Shown piece after piece: positions 5,910 through 41,059 of a stretch of 52,782 nt of DNA. Every line of letters starts with the position of its first letter. Position 1 is the first letter of the stretch. This DNA is from a virus (Duplodnaviria; Heunggongvirae; Uroviricota; Caudoviricetes). Under the pieces are notes generated by a model. It was not told the DNA's origin and made no database searches. It was given only the letters and a program-made list of their open reading frames with translations. The stretch is taken from the IMG/VR virus record IMGVR_UViG_2718218129_000002. One strand, given 5' to 3'. A program made the translations under genes and the position numbers.

Positions 5910-8900
5910 TCAACGAATACTGATGCCGGAAGCGGCTTTTTTGGTCACAATCACCGTACAGTCGGTGATATTGCCTGCCCCCTGATTGCCTTTCTGGAAA
6001 ATCTTAAACTCCAGAGTGACGCTACCACCACCACTAGGCATATCAATAACTGCACTGTAACTACCGGGAATGGCCCCTTTAGTTTCTCTGGATGCGATTA
6101 ATACGCCGTTTTTGCGAACTTCAAAACCATAACCCGTGTATCGCGTGCCTCCTGGGTTATTTCCGCTCCCCGGATCGTCATACGCTATACCGTTAAAAAT
6201 AATGGGCGGAATAATAATCTGGCGGTCAAAGTTATGATCATCGCTGATGGTGACTGTAACCGTACCGTTTGGTGTTTCCGTGTTACCCCACGTACCGACT
6301 TTTTTCGGGAAGGCTTTTGATACAGCTTTAACGAAATCCCCTCTGACCTGGGTCGCCTCCAGCATGCCCTTAATCGTACAGTTCTGGTTAATCGTGACAT
6401 TGTTGAGCGTTCCTGAGTTCGCATTCACACTACCACTGATATCCGCATTTTTAGCGGTCAGCTTTCCGTCTGATGTCAGGGAAAATACCGGAGGACTGCC
6501 ACCGCTGGTAATGGTGGGGGCTGTCAGGCGCTTCAGGAACACGTCGTTCATGAATATCTGGTTGCCCTGCGCCACAAACATCGGCGTTTCATTCCCGTTT
6601 GCCGGGTCAATAAACGCGATACGGTTAGCGGCAACCAGAAACTGGCTCAGCTTGCCTTCCTCCGTGTCCTCCATGCTGAGGCCAATACCCGCGACATAAT
6701 GTTTGCCGTCTTTGGTCTGCTCAATTTTGACGCCCCACATGGCATTCCATTTATCGTTAGCGTCCTTCCACTCTTTCGAAAACTCATCCAGTCTGCTGGC
6801 GTTATCCTCCGTCAGATCAACTTTTTCCAGCAGCTCTTTACCGAGATGGGATTCGGTTATCTTGCCTTTGAAAAAATCCAGGTAACCTTCCGCATCATCG
6901 CTCGCCCGACCGACGGCCTCCACGAATGCCGATTTGCCAACGGTGTTCACACTGCGGATATAAAAGTAATAATCATGGCCCGGTTTGATATTGATACTGG
7001 CGGCTATCCAGTACAGCCCCGTGCCAAGGTAGCGGGCTGTGGTTTCAACCTGCCTGATATCGGTAATCCGCTTTTCCGAGAACCAGAACTCAAACTGTAC
7101 CGTCGGATCATAAACGGCAAGATGCGGCGTTGCGGTTATCTGAAAATAGCCCGGCGTCAGCTCAATCCGCGACGGTGCTGCCGGTGCGGCAATCCGGAAC
7201 GATACCGACGCCGGATCGCCCTGCTGCCCCCAGGCATTTGCCGCCCGGACTGTCAGCCTGTAGTTCCCCAGCGCCAGTTGCGTGAAGCGGTATGTGGTTT
7301 CCGTCGTCCGGGCCGTGCTGACCAGCCGCTCACTGCCGTCATCCGCTGCCACGGTCAGGCGAAGCATAAAGCTCACGCCCTTCACCACCTTCGGCGTGTC
7401 CCAGCGGGCCAGTACCTGATACTCCCCGCTGTCTGCGGTGACTTCGGCAGTCAGGTGCTGCACCGCTGGCGGCGTGACACCATTCACCGTGCCGCTCTGG
7501 TCGCCGTCAAAGTGCGCCCCGTTATCCACGATGGCTTCTTTTTCCGGTACATGCTGCACGGCAGTGATGGCATACGTGCCGTCATCGTTCTCACGGATAC
7601 TCACACAGCGGAACAGGCGCTGGCGCAACGTCGGCAACTTCAGCCCCCATACGCTGTATCCGGCAACGCCGTCAGGAACACGGCTCACTTTTACCTTCAC
7701 GCCGTCGGTGACGGACTGGACCTCCACGCTGACCGGATTGCCACTTCCGTCAACCAGGCTTATCAGCGTGGTACCGGAGGATGGCAGCGTGATTTCACGG
7801 TCGAGCGTCAGCGTCCGGCTCTGGCTGTTCACCGCCAGCACGCGCCCGCCGGTGCTGATACCGGCATAGTCATCATCGCAGATTTCAATGACATCGCCCG
7901 GTACATGGCGAAGCCCTTCAGCACCCACGCTGAAGTCCACGGTCTGCGTTTCCAGCAGCTCCGTTTTAATCAGCCACAGCCCGGCTCGGTGTGCCTGCCC
8001 CCGGCTGGTACAGCCAAAGGCATCCATCTTCGTGACGTTACGACCATAACGGGCAATGGCCTGCGTGTCCTCCACAAGCTCTGTCGCCGTCTCCCAGCCG
8101 TTATCCGGGTCAATCCAGTTCACCTCAACGGCATTATGGCGGTCCTTCAGGGCGCTGAAGCTGTAGCGGAACGGCGCGCCATCATCCGGCATCACCACAT
8201 TACTGCGGTTATAGGTCCACACCTTATCCGACGGTCGGTCCTGCACGAACGTCAGCGTCTGCCCGTTCCATACCGGCATACAGCGCATCGCCGAGCAGAA
8301 ATCACTGAGCACATCCCACGCCTTGCGCTGTGTGGTCAGGTACGCATTACAGGTGATGCGCGGCTCCGTGCCGCCAAAGCCGTCCGGCACTGACTGGTCG
8401 CAGTACTGGCCGATGACATACAGCGCCCATTTGTCCACATCCGCCGCACCAAGACGTTTCCCCATGCCGTAGCGTGGATGGGTCAGCATATCCCACAGAC
8501 ACCAGGCCATGTTATTGCTGTATGCTGGCTTAAACGTTCCGTCCCAGATACCGCTGTATTGCCGCGTCTGCGGGTTATAGTTCGACGGCACCTGCAGAAT
8601 ACGCCCGCGCAGATGATAATTACGGCTCACCTGCTGGCTGCCGAACTGCTCCGAATCCACCTGTACGCCGACCAGTGCCGTGTTCGGGTAGCACTGTTTC
8701 ACATCGATGATTTCGGTGTATGACGACCAGAGCGTTTTGTTCTGCAGCTGGTCTGTGGTGCTGTCCGGCGTCATCCTGCGCATCCGGATATTAAACGGGC
8801 GCGGCGGCAGGTTATCCACCACCACCGAGGCCAGATACTGCGAGGTGGTTTTGCCCTTAATGGTGATGTCTTTTTCCGTCACCCAGCCACCGTTACGTTG

Positions 8901-9323
8901 TATCTGAACCAGCAGGCGGACTTCCGACGGATTCCTGTCCCCCTTAGAGGTGGTTTCCACCAGTGCCTGCACGCCGAAAGTAAAACGCAGACGGTCAATG
9001 TTTGCCGACGTGATGGTCCGGGTGATCGGCGTGTCATATTTCACTTCTGTACCGAGCACCGTCTCGGAGCCGGAGGATTCAAATCCCTCCGGCGGTGTCT
9101 GCTCCTGCTCACCGGCCCGGAACACCACCGTGACGCCGGATATATTGGTATTCCCCTCACTGTCCAGCACCGGCGTACTGTTCAGCAGCACGCTTTTTAA
9201 TCCATCCACCGGACCTTCAACCGGCCCTTCGCTGATGGCATCGATCACACTCAGCAGCTGCGTGGACTTCAGGTTGTCCTTCGCTTCGCGCGGGGTATGC
9301 CCCTTACTGCTGCCTTTACCCAT
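5910..9323 (-). CDS. J: tail tip / host specificity protein J
   Basis: 1137 aa; N-terminus [34 protein letters not shown]... matches lambda J as recalled; C-terminal about 150 aa diverge. Confidence 0.9.
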
Positions 9324-9383
9324 TCGTCATGCTCCATAAACGATAAAACCGCCCGGAGGCGGTTTCACATAAAACGTTTTTCA

Positions 9384-10031
9384 TCAGCGACCAATCACCA
9401 CAACCTGACCACCATCCCCTTCGTCTGCCGTGCTGATCTCCTGAGAGACCACCCGCGACCCCACGCGCATTTCACCGTACAGAACGGGCAGAACATTGCC
9501 CTGGGCAACCATGTTATCCAGTGACGAGAAATACGTGTTCTGTTTGCCGTTATCTGTACTGGCTGCCGTGGGCGTCCTGGCTTTCGGTGCCAACATCTGC
9601 GCCACACCGCCCAGGATCATACTGGCCCCTGCCGCATACATACCCGATACAGCCGTGGCCCCCAGCCAGCCCACAGGGTTCCACCATGCAACCGCAATCA
9701 GCGCCGCCCCCAGCACTGCCTGAAAAATACCGCCACTTTTAGCACCCGCCGGACGCGGTACGATGTGGATCACGGCACCATTTTCCAGCGGCTCATTAAG
9801 ACGGGCAGACAATTCAGTTTCACCTGCATCACGCCCGGCAATGCGTACCTGGTACCAGCCGTCGCTCAGTTTCTGACGAAATGCCGGGATCTGCATGGCC
9901 AGCGCCCGGATGGCTTCGGACCCCGTTTTCACTCGAAGGTCGATGCGGCGGCCAAATCGTTGTAAATCCCCGTAAAGGCAGATGCGTGCCATGCCCGGTG
10001 ACGCCAGAGGGAGTGTGTGCGTCGCTGCCAT
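9384..10031 (-). CDS. I: tail assembly protein I
   Basis: 215 aa; MAATHTLPLASPGMARICLYGDLQRFGRR... matches lambda I as recalled. Confidence 0.85.
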   Translation of the reverse strand: MAATHTLPLASPGMARICLYGDLQRFGRRIDLRVKTGSEAIRALAMQIPAFRQKLSDGWYQVRIAGRDAGETELSARLNEPLENGAVIHIVPRPAGAKSGGIFQAVLGAALIAVAWWNPVGWLGATAVSGMYAAGASMILGGVAQMLAPKARTPTAASTDNGKQNTYFSSLDNMVAQGNVLPVLYGEMRVGSRVVSQEISTADEGDGGQVVVIGR

Positions 10032-27716: not shown

Positions 27717-29192
27717 TTAGGAGCGCCAAAAAAAACCTGAAAACAATATAATAACAGGATAAATTTCAAGGCGACCAAGAATCATAGCTATGCACATTAA
27801 ACATTTTGCAATGTCATTAAGCACTCCGAATGACGATGCAGTAGCCCCAAAACCTAATCCCATATTATTAATACATGCAGCCACTGTTGCAAATGATGTA
27901 AGAAAATCATATCCCATACCATTTAACACCAGTATAAAAAACACCGTGAAGAGAGTATAAAGAAAAAAGAAACTCCATACAGACCTCATTACACGATCTG
28001 TAACTATCTTCCCTCCTACATTTACACTCAACAACGCTCTGGGATGAGAAAGCTGATTTATCTCGTGTTTGCTTTGTTTGAAAAGTATAAGAAATCGAAG
28101 TGACTTAATTCCACCACAAGTTGAACCTATACATCCCCCAAAGAAACTTGACAACAGCAAAAACACTATCGTGTGCGTGGGCCAACTTGCATAATCCTGC
28201 GTAGCTAAACCATTATCAGTGAGCATGGAGCTGGCAAGAAAAAACGAATGAATAAAACTTCCATGCAAGTCATACATACCTATATGCCAGACCTGGAAAG
28301 AGGTAACAATGATCACCCCTAAGGCTATTAACAGAAAGAAACGAAGTTCAATATCTCTGATTAAAGGTTTTATCGTTTTCCTGCTAATAACAATATACCA
28401 AAGAGTGAAGTTGAAAGCCGATAGCAGGGAAAAAGAACCAGCCACCAGCTCAACCAAATAGTTATTAAAATATCCGATACTCTCGCTATGAGTTGAGAAA
28501 CCACCAAGCGAAACTGTGGAAATCCCGTGACAAATAGCATCAAACAAAGGCATTCCTGCAAGTCTATAACAGACAATACAAGCAATACCTAATAAAGAAT
28601 AAGTTATCCACAGTGTCCGTGACGTATCGGCCAGGCGGGGAGTGAGTTTGTCATCCTTAAATGGCCCCGGCATTTCTGACTGATAAAGCTTTGCACCACC
28701 AATACCCAATAATGGCAATACAGCAACCGCCAGAACAATAACTCCTAAACCACCTATAAAATTTAACTGTGACCGATAGTACAAATATGCCCGAGGTAAT
28801 GAACTAACATCATCAATTACAGTTGCTCCTGTTGTTGTTATTCCAGAAACCCCTTCAAACAGAGCATCAATGAACGTTAAATTAAGTTCTGAGTCAATCC
28901 ATAAAGGGAATGCACTAATAACAGAAAACAAAATCCAAAACATTACAATTATAATAAACCCATCACGGGTACGTAATTGAATGCCAGATTTCTTAGTTGT
29001 ATACCACGCTCCGCCACCAATGCAAAAAAATATAACGAAAGTTATAAAGAAAACGAACAGGCTTTTTTCTTTATAAAACAATGCTACAACCATTGGTGGC
29101 AACATTGAAAGACTATAGAGCCAAACCAGGAACCCACACATATGAGTAACAACTCTTACATGAGATGTATTCATATCTAAATATTCTTTCAA
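27717..29192 (-). CDS. trkG: TrkH/TrkG-family potassium uptake membrane protein
   Basis: 491 aa polytopic membrane protein; visibly AT-rich gene with AT-rich flanks. Confidence 0.9.
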   Translation of the reverse strand: MKEYLDMNTSHVRVVTHMCGFLVWLYSLSMLPPMVVALFYKEKSLFVFFITFVIFFCIGGGAWYTTKKSGIQLRTRDGFIIIVMFWILFSVISAFPLWIDSELNLTFIDALFEGVSGITTTGATVIDDVSSLPRAYLYYRSQLNFIGGLGVIVLAVAVLPLLGIGGAKLYQSEMPGPFKDDKLTPRLADTSRTLWITYSLLGIACIVCYRLAGMPLFDAICHGISTVSLGGFSTHSESIGYFNNYLVELVAGSFSLLSAFNFTLWYIVISRKTIKPLIRDIELRFFLLIALGVIIVTSFQVWHIGMYDLHGSFIHSFFLASSMLTDNGLATQDYASWPTHTIVFLLLSSFFGGCIGSTCGGIKSLRFLILFKQSKHEINQLSHPRALLSVNVGGKIVTDRVMRSVWSFFFLYTLFTVFFILVLNGMGYDFLTSFATVAACINNMGLGFGATASSFGVLNDIAKCLMCIAMILGRLEIYPVIILFSGFFWRS

Positions 29193-29311: not shown

Positions 29312-29788
29312 TTACTTTAAACACTGCTCGGTTATGTATTGCTGAGCACCTTCAAGTTGGGCCTGCATCATTACCAGTCGTTCCCGGAGGGTGAAATAAT
29401 CCCGTTCAGCGGTGTCTGCCAGTCGGGGGGAGGCTGCATTATCCACGCCGGAGGCGGTGGTGGCTTCACGCACTGACTGACAGACTGCTTTGATGTGCAA
29501 CCGACGACGACCAGCGGCAACATCATCACGCAGAACATCATTTTCAGCTTTCGCATCAGCTAACTCCTTCGTGTATTTTGCATCGAGCGCAGCAACATCA
29601 CGCTGACGCATCTGCATGTCAGTAATTGCCGCGTTCGCCAGCTTCAGTTCTCTGGCATTTTTGTCGCGCTGTTCTTTGTAGGCGATGGCGTTATCACGGT
29701 AATGATTAACACCCCATGACAGGCAGACGACGATGCAGATAACCAGAGCGGAGATAATCGCGGTTACTCTGTTCATTGCTGACCCCAC
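29312..29788 (-). CDS. Rz i-spanin
   Basis: 158 aa; N-terminal transmembrane segment, coiled-coil body; overlaps the endolysin 3' end. Confidence 0.8.
29371..29556 (-). CDS. Rz1 o-spanin lipoprotein embedded in Rz
   Basis: 61 aa in the +1 frame inside Rz; lipobox VVGC; proline-rich. Confidence 0.75.
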
Positions 29789-30270
29789 AAACAGATTTCA
29801 CGCTCAATCTCACGACGAGTCATGAGACCTTTCCATTGCTTACCGCCAGCATATGTCCAGCGACGTAGCTGATCACATGCGCCTTTGATATCGCCCTGGT
29901 TTATTTTGCGAAGAAGCGTCGATGTTCTGAAATTGCCAGCACCCACGTTGTAAACGAATGAGTAAAGAGCGCCGCGCGTTGTTTCCGGTATATCGACTTT
30001 GATGTACGAGTTAATTTGTCTGGCGACCGTGGCAAGGTCTTTATTCAGGAGGGCTTTGCATTCTGCTTTGGTATACGTTTTACCGAGCATGATGTCTTTT
30101 CCTGTATGCCCGTGACATACAGTCCATACACCAACAATATCTTTGTATGGTATGTAGCTGACACCTTCCAGACCATCGTTACCACTTGGGCCAGTGATTA
30201 ACACTGATGCTATAGCAATTGCTCCGCCACCAATAGCAGCAGCAACGACTTTTCGTAATGATGGAGGCAT
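29773..30270 (-). CDS. SAR endolysin (T4-lysozyme-like muramidase)
   Basis: 165 aa; N-terminal signal-anchor-release segment [18 protein letters not shown]; resembles phage 21 R. Confidence 0.85.
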
Positions 30271-30485
30271 TATTCACCTCTCGCAGCCTTGCGCTTATCT
30301 TCTTTAATCTTGAAATAAAGGTTTGTCAGGTACGTCAGCAGGCCAAATACCAGACTACCCAGCACACCGATTGCAGCCCACTGTGACGGAGTTACTCTAT
30401 CGAGCAACTGTAAAAACCAGTAGCCAGCACTGCCTGCGGAGGTGCCGTAGGCAATGCCTGTTGAAATTTTGTCCATGGATTTCAT
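30270..30485 (-). CDS. pinholin (phage 21 S-like) with dual-start motif
   Basis: From [26 protein letters not shown]...; matches S21 as recalled; stop overlaps the endolysin start. Confidence 0.8.
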
Positions 30486-30583
30486 AGCCTCACCTCCGCA
30501 CGGAACGGATGGCATAGTTATTATGTGTAGGCTTTCAGACACATCAATCAGAGCCTTATTGATATATATGCTGGAGACGATGC

Positions 30584-30610
30584 AATATAAAAAGCTCGCC
30601 GTAGCGAGCT
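30584..30610 (-). terminator. rho-independent terminator candidate after the lipoprotein genes
   Basis: AGCTCGC-cgta-GCGAGCT hairpin followed by a U-run on the minus-strand transcript. Confidence 0.35.
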
Positions 30611-30735
30611 AATAAAATGTATTTCTCTGATATTATGTTTATTTGTATTAGCTCAGACTTGACATCACAGGTTTCGTATATAGAACATCATCAAATCTGT
30701 CAGTTTGCTATGAATGAGATATAGTAATTGAAGAG

Positions 30736-31131
30736 CTAACCTCGCATGTCAAAGCCAGATTTCTGAAAATCTCTGTAGACTTCCGGATTGTTGAAGGCCG
30801 GAAATTTGGCTTTATGAGCTGCGGACTTTATCGCTTCGCAATAGGCTTTATCACCGTTACTGGTAGATATTTTTAACGCCGTGCCATCCTGAGAGAATTC
30901 CATATGCAACCTGCATTTTTTCCCTTTCCAGTTATGCGGCTCATCAAGTTTGGCATTAATTGCAGCTCTGATTCCCCGCGCTTGCGCCCCCCATTCATCC
31001 TGATCATCCCAGCGTCCTGAACTGCAACTACCTGTAGCAGTAGTTTTGTGGCAATCTGAAGGGTGTAAAGGTGTGCATCCCGCAACAAAACCGACCCAAA
31101 AAGTCAACATAACGATTTTCTTTAATCCCAC
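30736..31131 (-). CDS. lipoprotein with TolA C-terminal-domain-like fold (paralogue 2)
   Basis: 131 aa; signal peptide with lipobox VAGC; C-terminus keeps the KxC...G...C...VY..FQ..G.D pattern of paralogue 1. Confidence 0.65.
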   Translation of the reverse strand: MGLKKIVMLTFWVGFVAGCTPLHPSDCHKTTATGSCSSGRWDDQDEWGAQARGIRAAINAKLDEPHNWKGKKCRLHMEFSQDGTALKISTSNGDKAYCEAIKSAAHKAKFPAFNNPEVYRDFQKSGFDMRG

Positions 31132-31281
31132 TTCTTGCTCCTCAATCCATTAAAATCTCAGCAATAGTAGTTGTTACGTCCGCCACTGGCTCAGAGCTGA
31201 CTATCCGCTAAATTTAGCTCAGTGCCGTAGCTGTGTCAGAACAAACCTAAGCCGAAACCGTTTATTACAAAACAATAAATA

Positions 31282-31710
31282 TCAGGGTTTAAAATCCAGC
31301 ACCCCATTTTGAAATACTTTATATACATCCGGCGAAGGGGGGGCAGGTATATCAGCATTCTTTATCGCATTCATCGCTTCACGACATAAATCGAGGTCTC
31401 CACTTTCTCTTTTAACCTCCAGTAGAAGGCCATTCGGGGCCATATGCATTCTCAGTGTACACTCTTTTCCTGAATACTTACTCGCATCCCCGAACTGTTT
31501 TTCGATGGCGCTCTTGATTTGATGGGCATACAGACGGATATCCTCACTAACATCAGAAGTACGTTCAGATGAACTCACATACTGTGTCTCTATTGCTTTA
31601 TCGGAGTAATATGATGTACGGTCATGATAATTTGTCGATACAGCATCAGTGCACCCGATAATAATCCCACTAATAATCAACGTAAGAATTGATGCGCTAC
31701 GAAAACCCAT
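31282..31710 (-). CDS. lipoprotein with TolA domain-III-like C-terminus (paralogue 1)
   Basis: 142 aa; lipobox IIGC; C-terminal about 85 aa closely resemble E. coli TolA domain III as recalled. Confidence 0.7.
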   Translation of the reverse strand: MGFRSASILTLIISGIIIGCTDAVSTNYHDRTSYYSDKAIETQYVSSSERTSDVSEDIRLYAHQIKSAIEKQFGDASKYSGKECTLRMHMAPNGLLLEVKRESGDLDLCREAMNAIKNADIPAPPSPDVYKVFQNGVLDFKP

Positions 31711-32647
31711 TTTTCCTCACATATGTCATATAGTAAAGGATTATATATACCGTTGTTTTGGACGCTCAAACAGCGAATCAGATCAAATAAAACGCACATT
31801 TGTTAACATTTACACAAAGTCTGCGTGGGATATTCTGAAAGAATATCCATAATGTGGAGAGAATCTATTGAAGTGCATGGTGCCGGGTGCCTCCCGGTGA
31901 ACAAAATGTTCGTGATACCTGTCGGCGACAGAAAAGGTTAATGGTATCACCCCACCGCACAGGGGGATTCACCATGCAGGAGTTTTCTTAGCAAACTCAC
32001 TGCGCGCCCGGCAACTCCCAACCACATAAAATGCGGAGTTTGTGGTATTTATGCATATAACTCGCAGGAATTATCTTAAAAAACTGATGTCGATCCGGAT
32101 TAAAAAGAAGCAGGTCATCATCAGATGACTGGAAAAAAGGAAAACAAAAAATACTCATCATACAGTTTTGATTGCAGGGATGAGCCTGCTATGCACAATA
32201 TGCAGAATATAAGCAAGATAAAAATATGCAGGCATATTATTTCGGATTTTGTTATTAACACAACCTTTTTAATAATCATTTGGCATACAATAAACCAGCC
32301 CAAAAAGAACCGCCTAAACAGGCGGTTGGTCAATACAAAGGATGCTTCGTCTTTATTATAGTAATCTGAGGCGTCGGGTGTCTTGTATCAGACAACATAT
32401 TGTCCCGCTAAACAGCGAATTACAAACCACCCTGCAATGATCTCTCATCTCATTTTATATGAGTTGACGACATCAGGATAACGCATCATCAGCCCCTGCC
32501 AAGAAATATCAAAACTCCCGCCAGCAATGTGTTATCACAATATTGTAAAAAAAACACAGCACCGAAACTATAACTGGTCTCTGTTATAATTTGGAGCAGA
32601 AAGACCAGTTGCCCAACTAGCAGCATTCTCCCCTGCTTTCCTGACGT

Positions 32648-32754: not shown

Positions 32755-33297
32755 TCAAGCCATTTTCTCAGCAAATGATTCACGCATGGGAATATATAGG
32801 GCATACTCAGCAACAGCTAACCAATTAGCAATCCGTTTTTCGCATGTGCTAAAACACCACTCTGGGTGTGCATCATTTAGCAATTCAGCCATTTTGCGCT
32901 TAGTCATCCCCCGCCCTTCATAGCGTTGCCGGAGAATGCAAATCAATCCTGGATGCTCTGCCAGCACCTCACTTATGACTCGATCAATACATAACGCCTC
33001 TGCATCAGTACAATGCGCCAGCCAGCTCTTTTGCTTGCCGTTGATCATCTCTCGCAAAAACGCTTCCAGCTCAGCTTTCTCTATTCCCGCTTTTTTCATT
33101 CTGCGCAGGGCTTCATTAATGGCTGTTTTCGTCAGTTTTTTGGATGCCAACAACTGATTGAACATATTCCCTGACCTGCCACCGCCAATATACGACCAGC
33201 GCCCCCACATACGTAGTTTTCCCTGAATCCAGACACTTTCCAGCGTGGTGAGGCGAAGGTGTTCTCCGCTTTTTCCTGTATTCGTTGGGTAAATCAT
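32755..33297 (-). CDS. late gene regulator, Q-like antiterminator candidate
   Basis: 180 aa; last nin-region gene before the terminator and lysis cassette; HTH-like segment near the C-terminus. Confidence 0.5.
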   Translation of the reverse strand: MIYPTNTGKSGEHLRLTTLESVWIQGKLRMWGRWSYIGGGRSGNMFNQLLASKKLTKTAINEALRRMKKAGIEKAELEAFLREMINGKQKSWLAHCTDAEALCIDRVISEVLAEHPGLICILRQRYEGRGMTKRKMAELLNDAHPEWCFSTCEKRIANWLAVAEYALYIPMRESFAEKMA

Positions 33298-34611: not shown

Positions 34612-34860
34612 TCAGAGGTTGCGGGGATTTCTCCCCGCTGGTCCTCTTACTCCCCAAGTTCGTAAGCTGTGAAGACAGCGACCTCCGTCTGGTCGGTTCG
34701 GATTCGTACCTCGCAGAGGTCTTTCCTCGTTACCAGTACCGTCACTATAACGGTTAAACAGATGACGATCAGGGTGATTAACATCGCCTTTTGCTGCTTC
34801 ATAGCCTGCTTCTCCTTGACCTTTTGGTCGGTAAGAGGCTAATCTACGTATGCAAAGCAT
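34612..34860 (-). CDS. mok-like overlapping reading frame
   Basis: 82 aa frame covering hok, as mok overlaps hok in characterised hok/sok loci. Confidence 0.4.
   Translation of the reverse strand: MLCIRRLASYRPKGQGEAGYEAAKGDVNHPDRHLFNRYSDGTGNEERPLRGTNPNRPDGGRCLHSLRTWGVRGPAGRNPRNL
34621..34638 (-). terminator. hok mRNA 3' hairpin
   Basis: GCGGGGA-ttt-CTCCCCGC perfect hairpin just after the hok stop; no clear U-run. Confidence 0.4.
34647..34802 (-). CDS. hok: Hok/Gef-family type I toxin
   Basis: Hand translation MKQQKAMLITLIVICLTVIVTVLVTRKDLCEVRIRTDQTEVAVFTAYELGE; Hok-like transmembrane toxin, 51 aa. Confidence 0.8.
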   Translation of the reverse strand: MKQQKAMLITLIVICLTVIVTVLVTRKDLCEVRIRTDQTEVAVFTAYELGE

Positions 34861-34925
34861 AGATGTGGCCTCAGATTAATGTTAAGCGTCTTGCCGGACG
34901 CGTAATGTTAACTGGGGCTTTTCTC
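34850..34925 (+). ncRNA. Sok-like antisense RNA (approximate position)
   Basis: TTGACC -35 and TAATCT -10 candidates on the plus strand opposite the mok start; boundaries not determined. Confidence 0.3.
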
Positions 34926-35298
34926 TATCTGCCTTTGGTGTTCATGCCCGAGGCAGACAGCCTCAAGCACCCGCAGCTATTCTACTTAACTCCCGTTACC
35001 TCGCCAATATGAAATCAATCAGAAAGGTGATCCATAAGAGCAATAGCAAGACCATAGATTGCCATTACAGCCGCTATAGTTTCTCTGATTTATTCTGTGG
35101 AAATGGGACACAACACCCCGTCACCACCACCACTTCCTTAAATGCGCTAAGTCAGTCACAAGCCAACACTTTAGTCCGCTTTGAGCGAAAAGCTGACAGG
35201 AGTTTAAATAATCAGTTAAGGCATTACAAAAAGCATGTGCTAATAGAGATAACCAGAGTCAATATATAATCTCTTAGCTCTATTTACACTTACGTACA

Positions 35299-36003
35299 TT
35301 ATTCTTGCTTTTTGGGAGGTCTTGGATATTTCGCAGGTAATTTTTCTGTAATCTTAAATATATCCTCATTTTTTAGTATTGTTCGCATTACAAAATTTTC
35401 TATAATTACCAAAAGCGATTTAAATTCAGTTTCGTTCGGTGCCCATGTCCTGTGTGCAGCTGAGTTGCCAGCTTCGGTTACAATTTTAAGTTGGCTCCTT
35501 TCTGTTTCCCCAATAAAACCTTCCTCTTTAAGAATGTCAACCTTCTGGCCTAATGTATATCCTGGATGAATATTTAGAACCTCAACTGTTCTGTCAAAAA
35601 TAGTTCTAAGTCCAATCGCCGCTAAAATGAATGATTTATTTTGAAATGCGATGTACATTTCGTTCATTATTACATACAGCTGACGATCTTTGTTTAATAT
35701 CTCACCAAACCAAGTTGGTCTAATCTCTTCTTGCTCTTGAGTGGGATATGTTGATATATGATAGTTATATACCATACAATCATAGCCTGACTCATCTCTT
35801 TCAATGTCGTAATCTTCACTGTGACGGGATTTAATATATGTAAATATTCCGTCGCACCCCATACACTCTAATAATTTGTATTCACTTTCAGCCCAAAAAT
35901 AGTTGCCCCCATCATCCTCACTCCATTCTCTTTTTTTATGGCCTATTATGTGGCAATTTTTTTCACCTTTACAATATGGACAAGGAGCTTTAATTTTTTC
36001 CAT
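35299..36003 (-). CDS. zinc-ribbon protein with HEPN-like (DUF4145-like) C-terminal domain, candidate defence protein
   Basis: 234 aa; CPYC...CMGC zinc ribbon; C-terminal helical domain with GNSAAHRTW; AT-rich gene; the domain family is uncertain. Confidence 0.55.
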   Translation of the reverse strand: MEKIKAPCPYCKGEKNCHIIGHKKREWSEDDGGNYFWAESEYKLLECMGCDGIFTYIKSRHSEDYDIERDESGYDCMVYNYHISTYPTQEQEEIRPTWFGEILNKDRQLYVIMNEMYIAFQNKSFILAAIGLRTIFDRTVEVLNIHPGYTLGQKVDILKEEGFIGETERSQLKIVTEAGNSAAHRTWAPNETEFKSLLVIIENFVMRTILKNEDIFKITEKLPAKYPRPPKKQE

Positions 36004-36717
36004 GGTAATTATTCTGCCATTTAAATTAAAATTGATATAACATATATGCTATATGATTTATAAATGATGAACTTACGGCTCACTTTACTACAATAATTTT
36101 CATATGAGTAGTGATATGCCTCTCATTTTCTTTGTCGTTGATTGATCTGCTCTACATTGATTAACACCGAATGGGAGTAACTCCCGCTTTTGGCAGAGTG
36201 CGAACAAGCTGACCAAACCTTAGGTCCGCAGTGAGCGAGGAGCGAGCATTGGCCTTATAAGGCATCGGAGCTGTTCTCCGGAGATCCTCTGAAAGCGAAC
36301 TGTTCGGTTAAGCAGGACGCTTACAAGGCAAGCTTAGCGTGTTGTCTTGTGATGGGTTGCTTAAACCTTTTGTGAAGGTATTTTTCTATCGAAAGATAAT
36401 TAACTGAGGTTGTTATGTCATACATTCGCGTCGAGAAAGATGACCTTCAGCATTAATCAGATTATTTCTGTGAAGAGGATATGGTTACAGTCTGTAGAAC
36501 TTAGGGGATTGTAGTCCAGTGTGGTTGTTAATGAGATGGCAGAAGTAGCTGCTGTTCGTACTGCGTTGCGAAATCTCATTAGAGAAAATCGGGTTGATCC
36601 TCTAACTGATTGAATATACATTCCTATTGCTCACGAGTTGGAATGAGCTGTGACTTTTTAGCTTTAAACTTAACTTTAAGACAATTTTATGATCACGTTA
36701 GGGTGTAAGAAGGATAT

Positions 36718-37944
36718 ATGAGCGGAGAAGTATTTCATAAAAGATTGTTTCCCGTTGGCCAGGGTGGATTTAGTTTAGGCGGACTGAGGGGAAGGGATGG
36801 TAGTTTGCTTTACAGTTATGTGTATGACTGCGGAAGTGACCAATTAAATGCGTTGCGTAGGGAGATGGATGTGGCTAAATCTCTCTTTAATATTGATGAG
36901 AAATATATTGATGTGGTATACATCTCTCATTTGGATTCAGACCATATAAATGGATTTGACCATTTATGTCAGCTTGTAGATAACAAAATACGCAAGGTTG
37001 TATTACCATACCTAGATATCCATGATAGCTATTACTTAATTGCATCGGAGCTATGCTCTAATTCTACGTCAGGTCTTTTTATGGAATTTCTCATTGATCC
37101 TGTCAAATGGATAAAATCAAGGTTGCCTGAGGCAGATATATCTTTGCTTTACCCCAGTGATATTGATGATAATTTTGACCCTCCTATATTTAATAGTGAA
37201 AACATTAAGGGTAGCGCTGTAAGCTTACCAATGAAAATATCTGACTCCAAAGGAGATGTTGAATGTAACCGTTGGTTGGTTAAAAGGATTGGGGAAAACA
37301 AAACTGATACACTAATGTCATTTATTTCTTGGATACCGCCCCGTTCACGTAAGAAAATTGAAATTTTCAGTCAGCAGTTAATAGAAAATGGTTTTACTGA
37401 GTTAAGTAAGAAAAAAATGCTTAAAATATTAACTAGCACGGGGGAAAGAAAGAAATTACGCGAGTGTTATTTAAAACTTGCTGGCGATCATAATGTAATA
37501 TCAATCAATCTCTTGATTATTAATAATCAAGAAGCTGAGATGAAAATTGTTAATGAGCCTTCTCGTGAGTGGTTTAGTTTTAGAAATAGTCGGGTTGAGC
37601 GACATTTTCTCTTTGATAGAGATAAAGGAATTAGATCTGTTTTATTAACAGGTGACTCAAAGCTTAATACATCATTGTATTATAATAAATGGGCTGAATT
37701 CTATTCAAAAGTGATTAAAACGGTAAGGGTGATGACATTACCTCATCATGGTTCGGAATTAAATTTCAATCAAAAAATAATTGCGGATTTTGATAATGTT
37801 TTGTTTATAGCTCAGTCGGATGGTCATTCACATGGACACCCATCACAATCAGTAATCGATGCTATAAATTCAAGTCATGGACATAGCGTTACTTTAGTTG
37901 ACAATAATGCTAAAAATTGGGTTGATATAAAATATATATTTTAA
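36718..37944 (+). CDS. metallo-beta-lactamase-fold protein
   Basis: 408 aa; ISHLDSDHINGF resembles the MBL HxHxDH motif; C-terminal LPHHGS as in ComEC-type MBL domains; AT-rich. Confidence 0.65.
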   Translation: MSGEVFHKRLFPVGQGGFSLGGLRGRDGSLLYSYVYDCGSDQLNALRREMDVAKSLFNIDEKYIDVVYISHLDSDHINGFDHLCQLVDNKIRKVVLPYLDIHDSYYLIASELCSNSTSGLFMEFLIDPVKWIKSRLPEADISLLYPSDIDDNFDPPIFNSENIKGSAVSLPMKISDSKGDVECNRWLVKRIGENKTDTLMSFISWIPPRSRKKIEIFSQQLIENGFTELSKKKMLKILTSTGERKKLRECYLKLAGDHNVISINLLIINNQEAEMKIVNEPSREWFSFRNSRVERHFLFDRDKGIRSVLLTGDSKLNTSLYYNKWAEFYSKVIKTVRVMTLPHHGSELNFNQKIIADFDNVLFIAQSDGHSHGHPSQSVIDAINSSHGHSVTLVDNNAKNWVDIKYIF

Positions 37945-38069
37945 ACATTAGTTGTATTAATAGCATTTAAATAAATTAAGTTTGTTGGTATGTTAAAAGT
38001 TTTTGCTAGATAACCAGGTCTTTTTTGACCGATGATACAGTCTTTGTTCCACGGTGACGTGTTCACACT

Positions 38070-38100
38070 CAAATCTCCTGCAATGTGGGAGATTTGAGTA
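38070..38100. terminator. bidirectional hairpin between convergent genes
   Basis: CTCAAATCTCC-tgcaatgtg-GGAGATTTGAG, an 11-bp perfect stem. Confidence 0.4.
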
Positions 38101-38184
38101 TGGTTGTCCCTGATGTGCGATAAGCGGACCTAACATTATTATGTTTTGAATAATAAGAGACAGTCAGTTGGCTGTAAGTCTGAC

Positions 38185-39078
38185 TTAGTTATCCAAAACA
38201 GCTTTTCTTTGTATTATTGTTCTAATAAATGCTGCTGATATATGCAACACGAATTCAGCATCGTATTCCAAGACAGAAGAAACCTTGTTGCTACCATGTC
38301 TTACTGCTGGCTCTGCATTTGTATAAGCGTAAAATTTCTCTATCACCGTTAAAAGCATAGGTGAGATAGTGTTTTCTTTTCTCATCAGTTTTAATACATC
38401 GCCCAAGGTTGAGGCTGAAGGATAATAAGTCCGACACATGCTTTCTATTGCACTTATTGATTCTTTTATGGAATTTTCTGGATCCTTATGCGCACCTAAT
38501 GCAAAAGCCCGGGCTTTCACATAGTGCCTCCTTGCAGGTTCAAACTGGTCTTGCAATAAGTTGTTAGTTTCATCGATTTTTTGTTCTAATTCATTTGGTA
38601 GTGGTGTTTCTAACCTACCAGCAGAATTCATTTTCCAGTCAATATTTCGAGATGCGAATAACTCGTTCAATTTCTGACGATATGATGTAAAAGTAATGTC
38701 TTCTAATGCCTTCTTACCCCAAGTATGGCCTCTTTCTACATCTCTTTTTCTTAATAGATCTCCGATAATCTCAACAGCATCATAAAATTGAAACCAACGC
38801 ATATGTTGCAAACGCGCTTTCAAAGCATCATAGCAGTACCATGAATCGAAATCCTCATGATCTGTTTCTTGACCATTCTCTGCGCAAAGTCGCTCGATCA
38901 AAGCCTTAATACCCAACGGCTTGTTCTCATCATTCGTAATGCGGCTATCACCATCAATGTACAAAAAATTATCGAGGACAGTTACAAAAAATAAAGAGCG
39001 AAGCCACTCTGGAGCATCTTCCCGTATCGGCTTTTTATTATACTCAGGATCAAAACCATGTCTGTACGAGAACTTCAT
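38185..39078 (-). CDS. hypothetical protein, candidate defence-associated
   Basis: 297 aa from MKFSYRHGFDPEYNKK... with GGGAG Shine-Dalgarno; AT-rich; no motif recognised with confidence. Confidence 0.55.
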   Translation of the reverse strand: MKFSYRHGFDPEYNKKPIREDAPEWLRSLFFVTVLDNFLYIDGDSRITNDENKPLGIKALIERLCAENGQETDHEDFDSWYCYDALKARLQHMRWFQFYDAVEIIGDLLRKRDVERGHTWGKKALEDITFTSYRQKLNELFASRNIDWKMNSAGRLETPLPNELEQKIDETNNLLQDQFEPARRHYVKARAFALGAHKDPENSIKESISAIESMCRTYYPSASTLGDVLKLMRKENTISPMLLTVIEKFYAYTNAEPAVRHGSNKVSSVLEYDAEFVLHISAAFIRTIIQRKAVLDN

Positions 39079-39488
39079 CCCACATCTCCCATTCAACTGT
39101 ATGAATATTAGGTAATTATACAACCAACACAAATCCCTTTGCGAATACAAAAAAATCAAAAAATCACAACAAATTTAAGAACTGATCGCTTATTTCTCTA
39201 TGGATGTCCGCTTCTGGCACGAAGCGGACAAGTTACCGTAGCTGAAGGTCACTAATACTGGGGGCAGGTCAGTTCGCGTTTGTTCTCATAACGGAGTAAG
39301 ACGCTAATGGTATTAAGGTGTATTAATGATCAATGTAGATCAACGATTATTGGCGTTTAACGCTCAGATGAGAACGTTCACCGATTCTGCACGAACAAAT
39401 TCAGAATGGGGGGATTTGATATCCCCCTGGTAGATGCCTTGGTTAATGTTTATAGGTCAATTGAACTCAGAGCATCATTCTTGCCGCA

Positions 39489-40850
39489 TTAGAGATGGTC
39501 AAAAATAGACCCTTTGCGTGGAATAAGGATCTTCTCATAAAGCTTTGTTGCATAGTCATCAGTCATCCCTGAAACATAGTCGCAAATGACTCGCATACCA
39601 GCCTTCTCGTCCAAGCTAGTCTGCCGCTCGTAAATTTCCCTCGTTGATGCCGGTAGAAACCGACACGGATCGTTAGCCAGCACACCGAAAAGCTCAACAA
39701 TCAACTTTTGTCCCTTGAATTCAAGCTGCTGTACATTTTCATGCTTAATTACTTTATTTTTGACCAGTTTGAAAATTTTCAACCGTAGTGCTTCGACCGC
39801 TTCCGGAAGGACCGCATTATATTTGAGCATGCCACATTCGAATGCTGGATTCTTTGTAATAAGCTCAACGCTTGTAATCATCAGGTGAACCAGCATCCCG
39901 ATGCACTCTTTTCTCTTGTAACTTTCACCAAAAAGGCTATCCGCGACAGATTCACATGTTGCGGAAAATGTTTCTCCATGGCAGTTAGTAAATAGGGTTT
40001 CATATTCACTGAAATGCTCCATCCACATTTCTCGTGTCACCATTCCGAGAGAAATAGCATCCTCCAAATCGTGCAGCGAATACGAAATTTCATCGGCAAG
40101 ATCCATGATGGTTGTATCGAGAGCTTTATAAGAAGCTTTTTTATGATCGGATTTAGTTTGACCATCTTCAACGGAAGTAAAAAGCCTCCGATCCTGTTCA
40201 GTAAATGGTGAAAGAGCAAATTCTACAACATCGCATTCTGAATCTAGATAGCATTTTGGAGGTTTAAAATCAGATGACTTAAAGAGCCAGTTCGGCGATC
40301 CGATAGTGGCCGGGATTCTGTCTTTTGTAACCACTAGATCCGAGTATTTAACCGGATATTTCAGTATGCCTAGCAGAAGTCTGCGTGTAGGATCGAGTCC
40401 GTGTTCAACGGTATACTTATCTAGTTTCGAGAGAATGCGAAGTGTCTGACCGTTTCCTTCAAAACCACCGTAATCCTGCATACAGTAGTTAAGAGCTACC
40501 TCACCGCCGTGACCAAATGGAGGATGTCCAATATCATGTGCGAGACATACTGCCTGCATAAGATCGTTATCTGGTAAAAATTGCTCTTGCTCTTTACCTT
40601 TATATTTTATTTTCAGCTTAGCAAGAAGACCTGAACCGATTTGTGCGACTTCCATAGAATGAGTCAGTCGTGTGCGGTAGAAATCACTTTCACCCAGACC
40701 AAGAACCTGTGTTTTGGATTGCAATCGTCTGAAAGCAGACGAGTGAATCAGTCGAGAAAGGTCGTGCTGAGCTTCAGATCGAATCTCCTCCACACGATGA
40801 CTATTGGTGCCTCGTCTCTTATCCCAGACGTTTATTTCACTCCGAGTCAT
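39489..40850 (-). CDS. dGTP triphosphohydrolase (HD domain, Dgt family), likely anti-phage dGTPase
   Basis: RTRLTHSMEVAQIG and HDIGHPPFGHGGE HD-domain motifs; start set at MTRSEINVW by GAGGAA Shine-Dalgarno; about 453 aa. Confidence 0.8.
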   Translation of the reverse strand: MTRSEINVWDKRRGTNSHRVEEIRSEAQHDLSRLIHSSAFRRLQSKTQVLGLGESDFYRTRLTHSMEVAQIGSGLLAKLKIKYKGKEQEQFLPDNDLMQAVCLAHDIGHPPFGHGGEVALNYCMQDYGGFEGNGQTLRILSKLDKYTVEHGLDPTRRLLLGILKYPVKYSDLVVTKDRIPATIGSPNWLFKSSDFKPPKCYLDSECDVVEFALSPFTEQDRRLFTSVEDGQTKSDHKKASYKALDTTIMDLADEISYSLHDLEDAISLGMVTREMWMEHFSEYETLFTNCHGETFSATCESVADSLFGESYKRKECIGMLVHLMITSVELITKNPAFECGMLKYNAVLPEAVEALRLKIFKLVKNKVIKHENVQQLEFKGQKLIVELFGVLANDPCRFLPASTREIYERQTSLDEKAGMRVICDYVSGMTDDYATKLYEKILIPRKGSIFDHL

Positions 40851-41059
40851 ATTATTCCTCATTTTTACTTTGTACACTGCGGCATTCTAACGTAACTAAA
40901 TTATCAAAATAACCTATTTATTTCTGACCTAATCTTCAATAATCAATGTTGTGTGAACTTAGTTAGGCCCGCCCCTGGCACAAAACAGACAACCACGCTA
41001 GCCGTATCCTGTGCCATGAAACTGTCAATTCACATATGAATTAATGGTCTTTAATCTCG

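Follow-up and report, generated by a model that had tools for sequence, protein, structure and literature searches.

Tandem TolA domain III-like lipoproteins of a Rac-like prophage as possible decoys for Tol-dependent colicins and filamentous phages

Introduction

The C-terminal domain of Escherichia coli TolA (domain III, TolAIII) is bound by the host protein TolB as well as by colicins and by the filamentous-phage protein pIII (g3p). Here we describe two tandem genes, given the working names L1 and L2, which encode predicted lipoproteins with a TolAIII-like domain and lie in a 52,782-nucleotide (nt) stretch of viral DNA (IMG/VR record IMGVR_UViG_2718218129_000002), hereafter the window. Colicin A adds a strand to the β2 edge of TolAIII (L375–P380) and makes cation-π contacts with K368, K379 and K396 (PMC3365938); the TolB N-terminus, g3p-N1 and colicin N (ColN) add to strand β3 (PMC4339652; PMC7391070). 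Binding at β3 is lost in the TolA mutants D418P or K420P, which show a full leaky tol phenotype (PMC4339652). The dissociation constant for TolAIII is ∼1 µM with ColN, compared with ∼40 µM with TolB (PMC4339652; PMC7391070).

Several small outer-membrane lipoproteins of phages and plasmids, namely Llp of T5, Cor of φ80, N15 and the mEp phages, and the plasmid protein TraT, block competitor entry from the periplasmic face. Bor of lambda and Iss of ColV plasmids are lipoprotein cargo found beside lambdoid lysis genes, with homologues on virulence plasmids, and their phenotype is serum resistance. TolAIII itself has been placed free in the periplasm in the laboratory: Levengood-Freyermuth and colleagues (J Bacteriol, 1993) reportedly found that its export confers tolerance to colicins E1, E2, E3 and A, though not D, together with leakiness, and a paper by Bouveret and colleagues (Biochimie, 2002) is reported to deal with periplasmic production of Tol domains. 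The reverse arrangement is also effective, in that periplasmic pIII-N1 sequesters TolA and thereby blocks the uptake of colicin A and of phage (PMC10424213).

Results and Discussion

Domain identity and fold

Both open reading frames (ORFs) are found, on the minus strand, where a preliminary description of the DNA had placed them, and both have the lipoboxes it had read, IIGC and VAGC. The two genes and their parts are as follows.

31282..31710, minus strand: L1 gene, 142 amino acids (aa), ATG start, TGA stop (ORF list, PF06519)
31651..31710, minus strand: L1 signal peptide and lipobox, MGFRSASILTLIISGIIIG-C20, read from the sequence (I-I-G-C, with Thr at +2)
31549..31650, minus strand: L1 predicted disordered tether, residues 21–54, rich in Ser, Thr, Tyr and Asp (predicted local confidence, pLDDT, below 50 for residues 13–51)
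31285..31548, minus strand: L1 TolAIII-like domain, residues 55–142, with β2 edge LLEVKR and β3 VLDFKP (phmmer against the PDB, Foldseek)
30736..31131, minus strand: L2 gene, 131 aa, GTG start (ORF list, PF06519)
31075..31131, minus strand: L2 signal peptide and lipobox, MGLKKIVMLTFWVGFVAG-C19, read from the sequence (V-A-G-C, with Thr at +2)
31003..31074, minus strand: L2 Cys-rich tether, residues 20–43, TPLHPSDCHKTTATGSCSSGRWDD, from its conservation in homologues; the adjoining QDEWG is counted with the domain
30739..31002, minus strand: L2 TolAIII-like domain, residues 44–131, with β3 FDMRG and the colicin A-type residues replaced (AlphaFold2, Foldseek, alignment)

The Pfam family PF06519 (TolA C-terminal; gathering cut-off 25 bits) matches L1 with E = 1.3e-23 (83.4 bits) and L2 with E = 1.3e-14 (54.6 bits). 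Searched against the PDB with phmmer, L1 finds the E. coli TolAIII entries 1s62, 3qdp, 2x9a and 1tol at E ∼1e-27, and in BLASTP comparisons with TolA residues 334–421 it is 60% identical over 86 residues; the corresponding identity for L2 is 34% over 77 residues. The two proteins share 28% identity with each other. Their resemblance to TolA domain III is far above chance. For the C-terminus of L1 it had already been proposed on the basis of a quoted TolA sequence, which agrees with that in the PDB.

Structure prediction, suggested in the preliminary description as a check, gives the same answer. The AlphaFold2 models are confident for residues 52–142 of L1 and 38–131 of L2 (domain pLDDT ∼80–96), with residues 1–51 and 1–37, respectively, disordered, and both show the α/β fold of TolAIII, in which a three-stranded sheet packs on helices. 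TolAIII structures are the best Foldseek matches in each case: L1 superimposes on 2x9a_B with a TM score of 0.96 and a root mean square deviation (rmsd) of 0.6 Å, and L2 on 3qdp with a TM score of 0.92 and an rmsd of 1.1 Å. The disulfide cysteines of TolA, C363 and C388, are invariant in the alignment of L1, L2 and their plasmid homologues and form a predicted pair, bearing out the earlier remark that the 131-aa protein keeps both cysteines.

Neither protein has the N-terminal transmembrane anchor of TolA (domain I); a cleavable lipoprotein signal peptide is found instead. The Ala/Lys/Glu-rich helical domain II is likewise missing, and a disordered tether of 24–34 residues connects the lipobox Cys with the domain. 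Matches to the TolA equivalog profiles span only positions 293–386 of a 387-position model, and the scores are 107.8 (L1) and 53.7 bits (L2) for NF007065, both below its cut-off of 213, and 75.4 (L1, above) and 47.2 bits (L2, below) for TIGR02794, whose cut-off is 59.45 bits. We conclude that L1 and L2 are members of the TolA C-terminal domain family and not TolA orthologues.

This resemblance is already on record. RefSeq names both 'cell envelope integrity TolA C-terminal domain-containing protein', Pfam recognises the domain, and both belong to PHROG 5772 (E = 6e-62 and 7e-65), a group annotated 'unknown function'. The preliminary description, which knew of no account of such proteins for Rac-type phages, is to be amended as regards the TolA resemblance itself. 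Their role appears to be undescribed in the literature searched, which yielded passing mentions (PMC2833190, PMC10269471, PMC11125564) and no functional study of L1/L2-type proteins.

Signal peptides, predicted location and tethers

The N-termini of L1, MGFRSASILTLIISGIIIGC, and L2, MGLKKIVMLTFWVGFVAGC, each combine a positively charged n-region, a hydrophobic core and a lipobox near residue 20, as expected of bacterial lipoproteins. Both genes have a Shine-Dalgarno sequence, GAGGA at 31714–31718 ahead of the ATG of L1 and GAGGAG at 31138–31143 ahead of the GTG of L2. RefSeq starts L2 at an internal ATG, giving a protein of 124 aa and removing the KK n-region; conservation of this n-region and of the lipobox among L2 homologues, together with the Shine-Dalgarno sequence, supports the 131-aa GTG start. 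The lipobox Cys is invariant in all aligned homologues of both families, even though the signal peptides of the L1 family are strongly diverged (e.g. MYCRAVPVLVLILASLTTGC), and lipidation of both proteins is to be expected from these signal peptides.

Lipoproteins of Enterobacteriaceae that do not have Asp at position +2 are sorted by the Lol system to the outer membrane. Since the residue that follows the lipobox Cys is Thr in both L1 and L2, and never Asp, an outer-membrane location is predicted for both.

Within the L1 family the pre-domain part is 47–84% identical, compared with 77–94% for the domain. The L2 tether is near-invariant across genera and has two extra cysteines, C27 and C36; with its continuation to residue 48 it includes an acidic, aromatic stretch, SSGRWDDQDEWG. 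A TolB-box-like motif in this tether (SSGRWDDQDEW, set against the colicin motif DG[ST]GWSSE) was considered and rejected, as the core is mismatched and part of the segment caps helix 1 in the model.

Binding surfaces

The residues that bind ligands in TolA were compared across the alignment, as listed here for β3 and for the nine positions of the colicin A site.

TolA reference: β3 APLDFKP; colicin A site K, L, L, D, I, K, P, L, K
L1: β3 LDFKP, identical to TolA; colicin A site H, L, L, E, V, K, R, M, K
L1 family: β3 GVLDFKP, with LDFKP exact in four of five sequences and LDFKL in one; colicin A site H/Y, L, L, E/Q, V, K, R, M, K (conservative)
L2 family: β3 SGFDMRG, invariant; colicin A site E, A/V, L/S, K/N/S, I/V/L, S, T, K, H/L/Q (not retained)
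Klebsiella plasmid lipoprotein: β3 APLDFRP; colicin A site S, L, N, S, A, I, A, I, T (edge rewritten)

Because LDFKP is kept exactly in β3 and the colicin A edge is conservatively substituted, L1 reads as a close surface mimic of host TolA; the sequence of L2 does not have this property.

A possible decoy role

The preliminary description had suggested either a decoy for colicins or filamentous phages or a modulator of Tol-Pal. We propose that L1 and L2 act as decoys, predicted to lie in the outer membrane, that take Tol-dependent colicins and filamentous-phage pIII from the TolQR motor, and we lean towards this reading while putting its chances a little short of even. Following processing by signal peptidase II, and with no Asp at +2, both proteins would reach the inner leaflet of the outer membrane, each domain hanging on a flexible tether of ∼25–35 residues. 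This would put them at the very place where invading TolA ligands first reach the periplasm, be it pIII with its N1 domain or the TolA-binding epitopes that group A colicins thread through porins. Because β3 and most of the β2 edge are kept, L1 should bind the same ligands as TolA by strand addition. A decoy is not connected to the TolQ–TolR motor, so a captured invader would not be pulled in and its import would stall, leaving the lysogen tolerant to Tol-dependent colicins and to Ff- and If-type phages. L2 shares the fold and the anchor of L1, but its surface is another one and very conserved; it may cover other ligands or bind the TolB N-terminus.

The ∼40-fold gap in affinity between invaders (∼1 µM) and TolB (∼40 µM) suggests that a moderate dose of decoy could protect the cell and spare Tol-Pal, short of a complete tol defect. 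The analysis shows the genes with their signal peptides, the fold, the conserved binding residues, the purifying selection, the cassette-like position and the recurrence on plasmids and chromosomes; lipidation and an outer-membrane location, expression in the lysogen from a promoter-like site ahead of L1, ligand binding and the protective phenotype are the parts of this scheme that we infer.

Distribution and selection in enterobacteria

Comparative depth comes from E. coli genomes, plasmids and protein collections, the phage database having given a single record, that of phage mEp460. L1 is present in 898 of 5426 complete E. coli genomes, with 781 copies at least 99% identical, and the full 1.3-kb region that comprises both genes and their flanks is found in 773 genomes at a coverage of at least 80%. 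Variants with protein identity as low as 65% keep the 142-aa length and the lipobox. Relatives of L1 form 46 clusters, in which every source name given is E. coli or Shigella. One 65%-identical variant, L1b, occurs alone in 136 genomes, including several named strains of Shiga toxin-producing E. coli (STEC).

Relatives of L2 form 368 clusters; the 120 listed are 78–99% identical and come from several enterobacterial genera, including Citrobacter, Enterobacter, Serratia, Raoultella and Klebsiella. The L2 family is separate from that of L1, much more conserved, and mostly chromosomal or plasmid-borne. The preliminary description had seen in L2 a divergent paralogue of L1; it is a divergent TolAIII, but not simply a diverged copy of L1, having its own, more conserved family.

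Both genes are under purifying selection. By the Nei-Gojobori method, the ratio of non-synonymous to synonymous divergence (dN/dS) between L1 and its 65%-identical variant is 0.37 for the whole gene, 0.26 for the domain and 0.52 for the pre-domain part. For L2, compared with the pO157, Serratia, Enterobacter and Citrobacter copies, dN/dS is 0.08–0.11, with dS 0.5–1.1, and for the domain alone it is 0.06–0.08.

These results bear on the annotation of L1. In the chromosome of E. coli E62 (L002, 8137–8943) RefSeq labels it 'tolA, incomplete, missing N-terminus', a pseudogene; it is annotated tolA in every E. coli RefSeq record examined, with the pseudogene flag wherever the feature table was read. 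The score of L1 for TIGR02794 probably explains the name. The label implies that L1 and L2 are decaying, functionless fragments of a captured tolA, a view for which the PGAP annotation of an incomplete tolA and the above-cut-off TIGR02794 score (75.4 vs 59.45 bits) can be cited, although that match is confined to the C-terminal end of the model. Both ORFs are intact, however: a Shine-Dalgarno sequence precedes the start codon of each, and each product has a lipoprotein signal peptide of its own; 781 genomes carry L1 copies of at least 99% identity, and its 65%-identical variants retain the 142-aa length; dN/dS is 0.26–0.37 for L1 and ∼0.1 for L2; and a distant search gave no blastn match to chromosomal tolA, so that this is no recent fragment. 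The pseudogene reading is effectively refuted by the intact ORFs, the signal peptides, the conservation and the dN/dS values. Since L1 is intact, widespread and under purifying selection, we conclude that its 'tolA pseudogene' label is an annotation artefact, and the annotation can be corrected to that of an intact, selected gene.

On chromosomes, L2 is a stand-alone gene in Enterobacter, Citrobacter and Serratia, with varied neighbourhoods. In Serratia (L010/L011, 6001–8736) it adjoins a GmrSD_N (DUF262) + HEPN gene pair, the whole looking like a small defence-island-like insertion beside nrdDG. Stand-alone TolAIII proteins are a large class: in an exhaustive profile-free search, 69 of the 150 best representatives are 100–175 aa long, and 46 of these 69 have a lipobox, with an ordinary signal peptide, read by eye, in ∼9 more.

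On another reading, the L2-type proteins (and perhaps L1 as well) would not be decoys but accessory factors of the envelope that have a partner in normal physiology and travel on mobile elements as general fitness or virulence cargo, like Bor, Iss and TraT. The very strong purifying selection on L2 at saturating synonymous divergence (dN/dS 0.06–0.11, dS 0.5–1.1), its stand-alone chromosomal occurrence, its conserved Cys-rich tether, the L2-type gene on the virulence plasmid pO157, and the size of the class of short, lipobox-bearing TolAIII proteins are all consistent with this. What it does not predict is the recurrent linkage to bacteriocin operons, a relaxase gene and defence-like neighbours; moreover, the close mimicry of the TolA surface by L1 is just what a decoy needs, and no partner or phenotype is known for such a factor. 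We consider this explanation quite unlikely.

Plasmid homologues

An L2-type gene, 88% identical at the amino acid level, is carried by ∼600 E. coli and Shigella plasmids. In both of the following it stands directly downstream of the relaxase gene nikB and before trbC.

6003–6434 of pO157 (L004, NZ_CP017670.1): L2-type gene
7004–7435 of an IncI1-type plasmid (L005): L2-type gene

Filamentous phages that are pilus-specific and depend on TolA attack the hosts of conjugative plasmids. The plasmid-borne L2-type gene may guard against filamentous phages specific for the I pilus; for one phage of the If type, IF1, the g3p–TolA complex is known (2x9a).

L1 matches 657 Klebsiella plasmid records by tblastn. 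On a 10-kb K. pneumoniae ColRNAI plasmid (NZ_CP044260.1; L003, 6174–9939), which carries a cloacin-like tRNase bacteriocin with its immunity and lysis genes, a lipoprotein with a TolA C-terminal domain and the lipobox L-T-A-C is encoded at 9206–9577. It is followed, with a 4-nt overlap, by a gene for a TonB_C protein with a Sec signal (9574–9939). The searched literature holds no functional description of this TolA/TonB_C pair, and one survey notes a TolA gene on the Klebsiella cloacin plasmid without comment (PMC10269471). Lipoproteins with a TolA C-terminal domain are also encoded on a 6.4-kb Enterobacter hormaechei plasmid together with a pore-forming colicin (NZ_CP053647.1; L023, 1282–4828), and on a large Klebsiella IncFIA plasmid directly after a thioredoxin-fold (Dsb-like) gene (L022, 5229–6258).

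A DDLLG(D/N)L motif is kept in the plasmid copies; we take it to resemble the DDIFGEL of TolA.

The recurrence of the same design on small bacteriocin plasmids amounts to convergent cargo and makes the decoy idea more plausible. A broader hypothesis follows these lines, namely that prophages and conjugative and bacteriocin plasmids of Enterobacterales widely deploy secreted, lipid-anchored mimics of the TolA C-terminal domain (in at least one plasmid type, also of that of TonB) as decoys that would neutralise Tol- or Ton-dependent bacteriocins and pilus-specific filamentous phages on the inner side of the outer membrane. We offer it tentatively and with some doubt; if it is true, the mimics would form an envelope-level class of immunity that is neither the masking of a receptor, nor a cognate immunity protein, nor any of the cytoplasmic defence systems, with L1–L2 as the E. 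coli prophage example.

The plasmid and chromosomal copies also bear on a suggestion made for the 'TolA' gene of a Cronobacter prophage, that it might serve the phage's own entry (PMC2833190). Applied here, L1 and L2 would aid entry or DNA injection through the Tol pathway. Their signal peptides, however, direct the product to the envelope of the producing cell and not to the virion, and the plasmid and chromosomal homologues have no phage to help, which makes this highly improbable.

Prophage setting

The window is a Rac-like prophage, with trkG and ynaK annotated beside the lysis genes, in keeping with the Rac-type setting first proposed for it. The location of the pair between Q and the lysis genes, described earlier as a moron position, is also borne out, by the following boundaries and neighbours.

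32755..33297, minus strand: Q-like late-gene regulator, upstream boundary of the moron site (Pfam DUF1133 and a weak Phage_antitermQ match; RefSeq)
29312..30542, minus strand: lysis cassette, downstream boundary, with P21-type holin, lysozyme and Rz (Pfam, ORFs; RefSeq essD, rrrD, rzpD)
29371..29556, minus strand: Rz1-like lipoprotein ORF embedded in the Rz gene (ORF list)
27717–29192, minus strand: trkG, potassium transporter and Rac-typical cargo, between the lysis cassette and the terminase genes (annotation)
31740..31769, minus strand: σ70 promoter-like site, TTGAGC-18 nt-TATAAT, ∼30 nt upstream of L1 (consensus scan, 10 of 12 matches)
30585..30610, minus strand: intrinsic-terminator-like hairpin between L2 and the holin gene, AGCTCGC-TACG-GCGAGCT then TTTTTAT (consensus scan)
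31821..32007, minus strand: STnc100-family RNA element, directly upstream of the L1 promoter-like site (Rfam RF02076, 86.6 bits, gathering score 47)
32308..32384, minus strand: candidate late promoter, AAGACA-18 nt-TATAAT, with a terminator hairpin, downstream of the Q-like gene (consensus scan only)

Phage mEp460, in which the annotated Q gene belongs to another type than that of the window, has the block from 30269 to 31901 (holin gene, terminator-like hairpin, both lipoprotein genes and promoter-like site) at 98.9% identity. In DNA and protein searches mEp460 was the one record among 50,697 phage records with the L1/L2 pair. The pair is thus an extra between conserved neighbours that varies among related phages, as is typical of a moron, L1b being found in a late region of another organisation, and the promoter-like and terminator-like sites that bracket it would correspond to the classical moron layout. 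When the surrounding 91 nt were folded, another pairing was favoured and the terminator-like hairpin did not stand out, the fold being only marginally better than shuffles (z −1.9). The homology of L2 with its plasmid and chromosomal copies begins only ∼30–60 nt upstream of the start codon.

The STnc100 element could be part of a late-transcript leader or a small RNA. It also lies upstream of L1 in mEp460 (L001, 5444–5634; 114 bits); upstream of L1b it is absent, and tRNA genes are found there instead. The sites at 32308..32384 are possible equivalents of pR' and tR'.

The late-operon position brings in the main rival of the decoy reading, according to which the pair deliberately perturbs Tol-Pal. 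By titrating the TolB N-terminus or other partners of TolAIII, L1 and L2 would loosen the tethering of the outer membrane by Pal and so promote lysis and virion release, vesicle formation or the leakage of cargo such as toxins or bacteriocins. L1 and L2 stand in the late operon directly upstream of the holin gene. In STEC-type prophages L1b occupies a late slot between Q and nanS-p/holin, the order being Q, TfpB, an AraC-type gene, the TolA-like gene, nanS-p and holin. The TolB-binding strand β3 is conserved in L1 and the plasmid copies, and conservatively in L2; a bacteriocin plasmid would gain from a leaky outer membrane; and exported TolAIII is itself said to cause periplasmic leakage. Proline mutants in β3 of TolA give the full leaky tol phenotype (PMC4339652), and modulated TolB interactions could, according to one review, regulate vesicle production (PMC7391070). 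A TolA-type gene of prophage CP-933O, EDL933_2012, which may or may not correspond to L1, is reported to be induced 32-fold by ciprofloxacin (PMC11125564).

Such a perturbation leaves unexplained both the TonB C-terminal-domain partner on the Klebsiella plasmid and the stable carriage of these genes on chromosomes and conjugative plasmids, given the cost of a permanently leaky envelope there. To judge from the terminator-like hairpin and promoter-like site, expression may be uncoupled from lysis; the lysis cassette already has a spanin pair for disruption of the outer membrane, and the affinity of TolA for TolB is weak (∼40 µM). Although it is the strongest competitor, we judge deliberate perturbation of Tol-Pal to be unlikely.

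At 35299–40877 (35.3–40.9 kb), the window has a cluster of defence-like cargo genes. These encode a DUF4145 protein (35299–36003), a metallo-β-lactamase-fold protein with an LmuA-like C-terminus (36718–37944, plus strand), a PDC-S32/AbiJ_NTD4-like protein (38185–39159) and a dGTPase (39489–40877; PADLOC E = 9e-145). The E62 prophage is otherwise near-identical, with DUF262 and AAA ATPase genes replacing this segment. A hok/sok-type toxin–antitoxin RNA (Rfam sok, 105 bits) lies at 34797–34972 on the minus strand, upstream of the DUF1367/YbcO/DUF1133 block, and the sok element is present in all related late regions examined.

Weighing the decoy reading

Taken over all the contexts in which these genes occur, a decoy role for L1 and L2 is the most economical reading. 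The binding strand of L1, the +2 residue, the recurrence on unrelated mobile elements and the reported TolAIII precedent all make a decoy or Tol-Pal function more plausible than it first seemed, and we count for the decoy role the GmrSD_N and HEPN neighbours in Serratia and the dGTPase and other defence-like genes of the prophage.

Several observations weigh against it. L2 has lost all three cation-π lysines and has its charge reversed at the position of D377, and the conservation of β3 could stem from the constraints of the fold alone. The dN/dS of L2 across genera (0.06–0.11) points to a conserved host partner and not to the capture of invaders, and the L2 of Enterobacter and Citrobacter looks like any other chromosomal gene. 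The pair lies inside a Q-dependent late transcription unit, directly ahead of the holin gene, so that its main expression could be lytic, when protection against colicins matters little. The promoter-like and terminator-like sites are consensus matches only, promoter-like sites in the region numbering 11 against 7.7 expected by chance, and the upstream region of L1 with its promoter-like site is not conserved in L1b. The leakiness that exported TolAIII reportedly causes would be a cost of any decoy. Full-text literature searches found no experiment and no expression or binding data on L1 or L2, and no PADLOC defence model matches either protein at E up to 1.

Should L1 and L2 prove to be decoys, about one-sixth of complete E. 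coli genomes (898 of 5426) carry an unrecognised determinant of tolerance to colicins and filamentous phages, as do pO157, IncI1-type plasmids and hundreds of Klebsiella plasmid records. This would be relevant to bacteriocin therapeutics (colicins, klebicins), to phage-display and Ff tools and to competition in the gut, and mimicry of the host import hub would join the known immunity strategies of mobile elements. If they tune Tol-Pal instead, outer-membrane stability and the release of vesicles would have natural regulators encoded beside lysis genes and, in STEC-type prophages, in the late slot between Q and the holin gene. On either reading, they are small natural probes of the TolA–TolB–colicin interactions.

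Comparison with known systems

The closest relative of both proteins is domain III of E. coli TolA (residues ∼334–421; 1TOL, 1S62, 3QDP/3QDR, 2X9A), with which they share the fold, the disulfide cysteines and PF06519. They differ from TolA in having neither domain I nor domain II, and hence no coupling to TolQ–TolR, and in being predicted to be anchored from the outer-membrane side by a short disordered tether. In this they are like artificially exported TolAIII, a free periplasmic domain uncoupled from the motor. L2 departs further from TolA, with an identity of 32–34% and other surface residues. The TolAIII, Tol, colicin and pIII fragments used in the laboratory are soluble and overproduced, whereas L1 and L2 are natural, diverged, selected on mobile elements and predicted to be lipid-anchored.

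Like Bor and Iss, L1 and L2 are encoded by lipoprotein genes beside a lysis cassette and have homologues on virulence plasmids, but their fold is unrelated. With Llp, Cor and TraT they have in common that they are small, encoded by phages or plasmids, and predicted outer-membrane lipoproteins, although there is no relationship in sequence or fold. The proposed mechanisms also differ: Llp and Cor act on the receptor FhuA, which they inactivate, and the target of L1 and L2 would be the invader itself, titrated through imitation of a component of host import. L1 and L2 are best seen as a new architecture of a known domain, for which a role as a variant of envelope-level exclusion is plausible.

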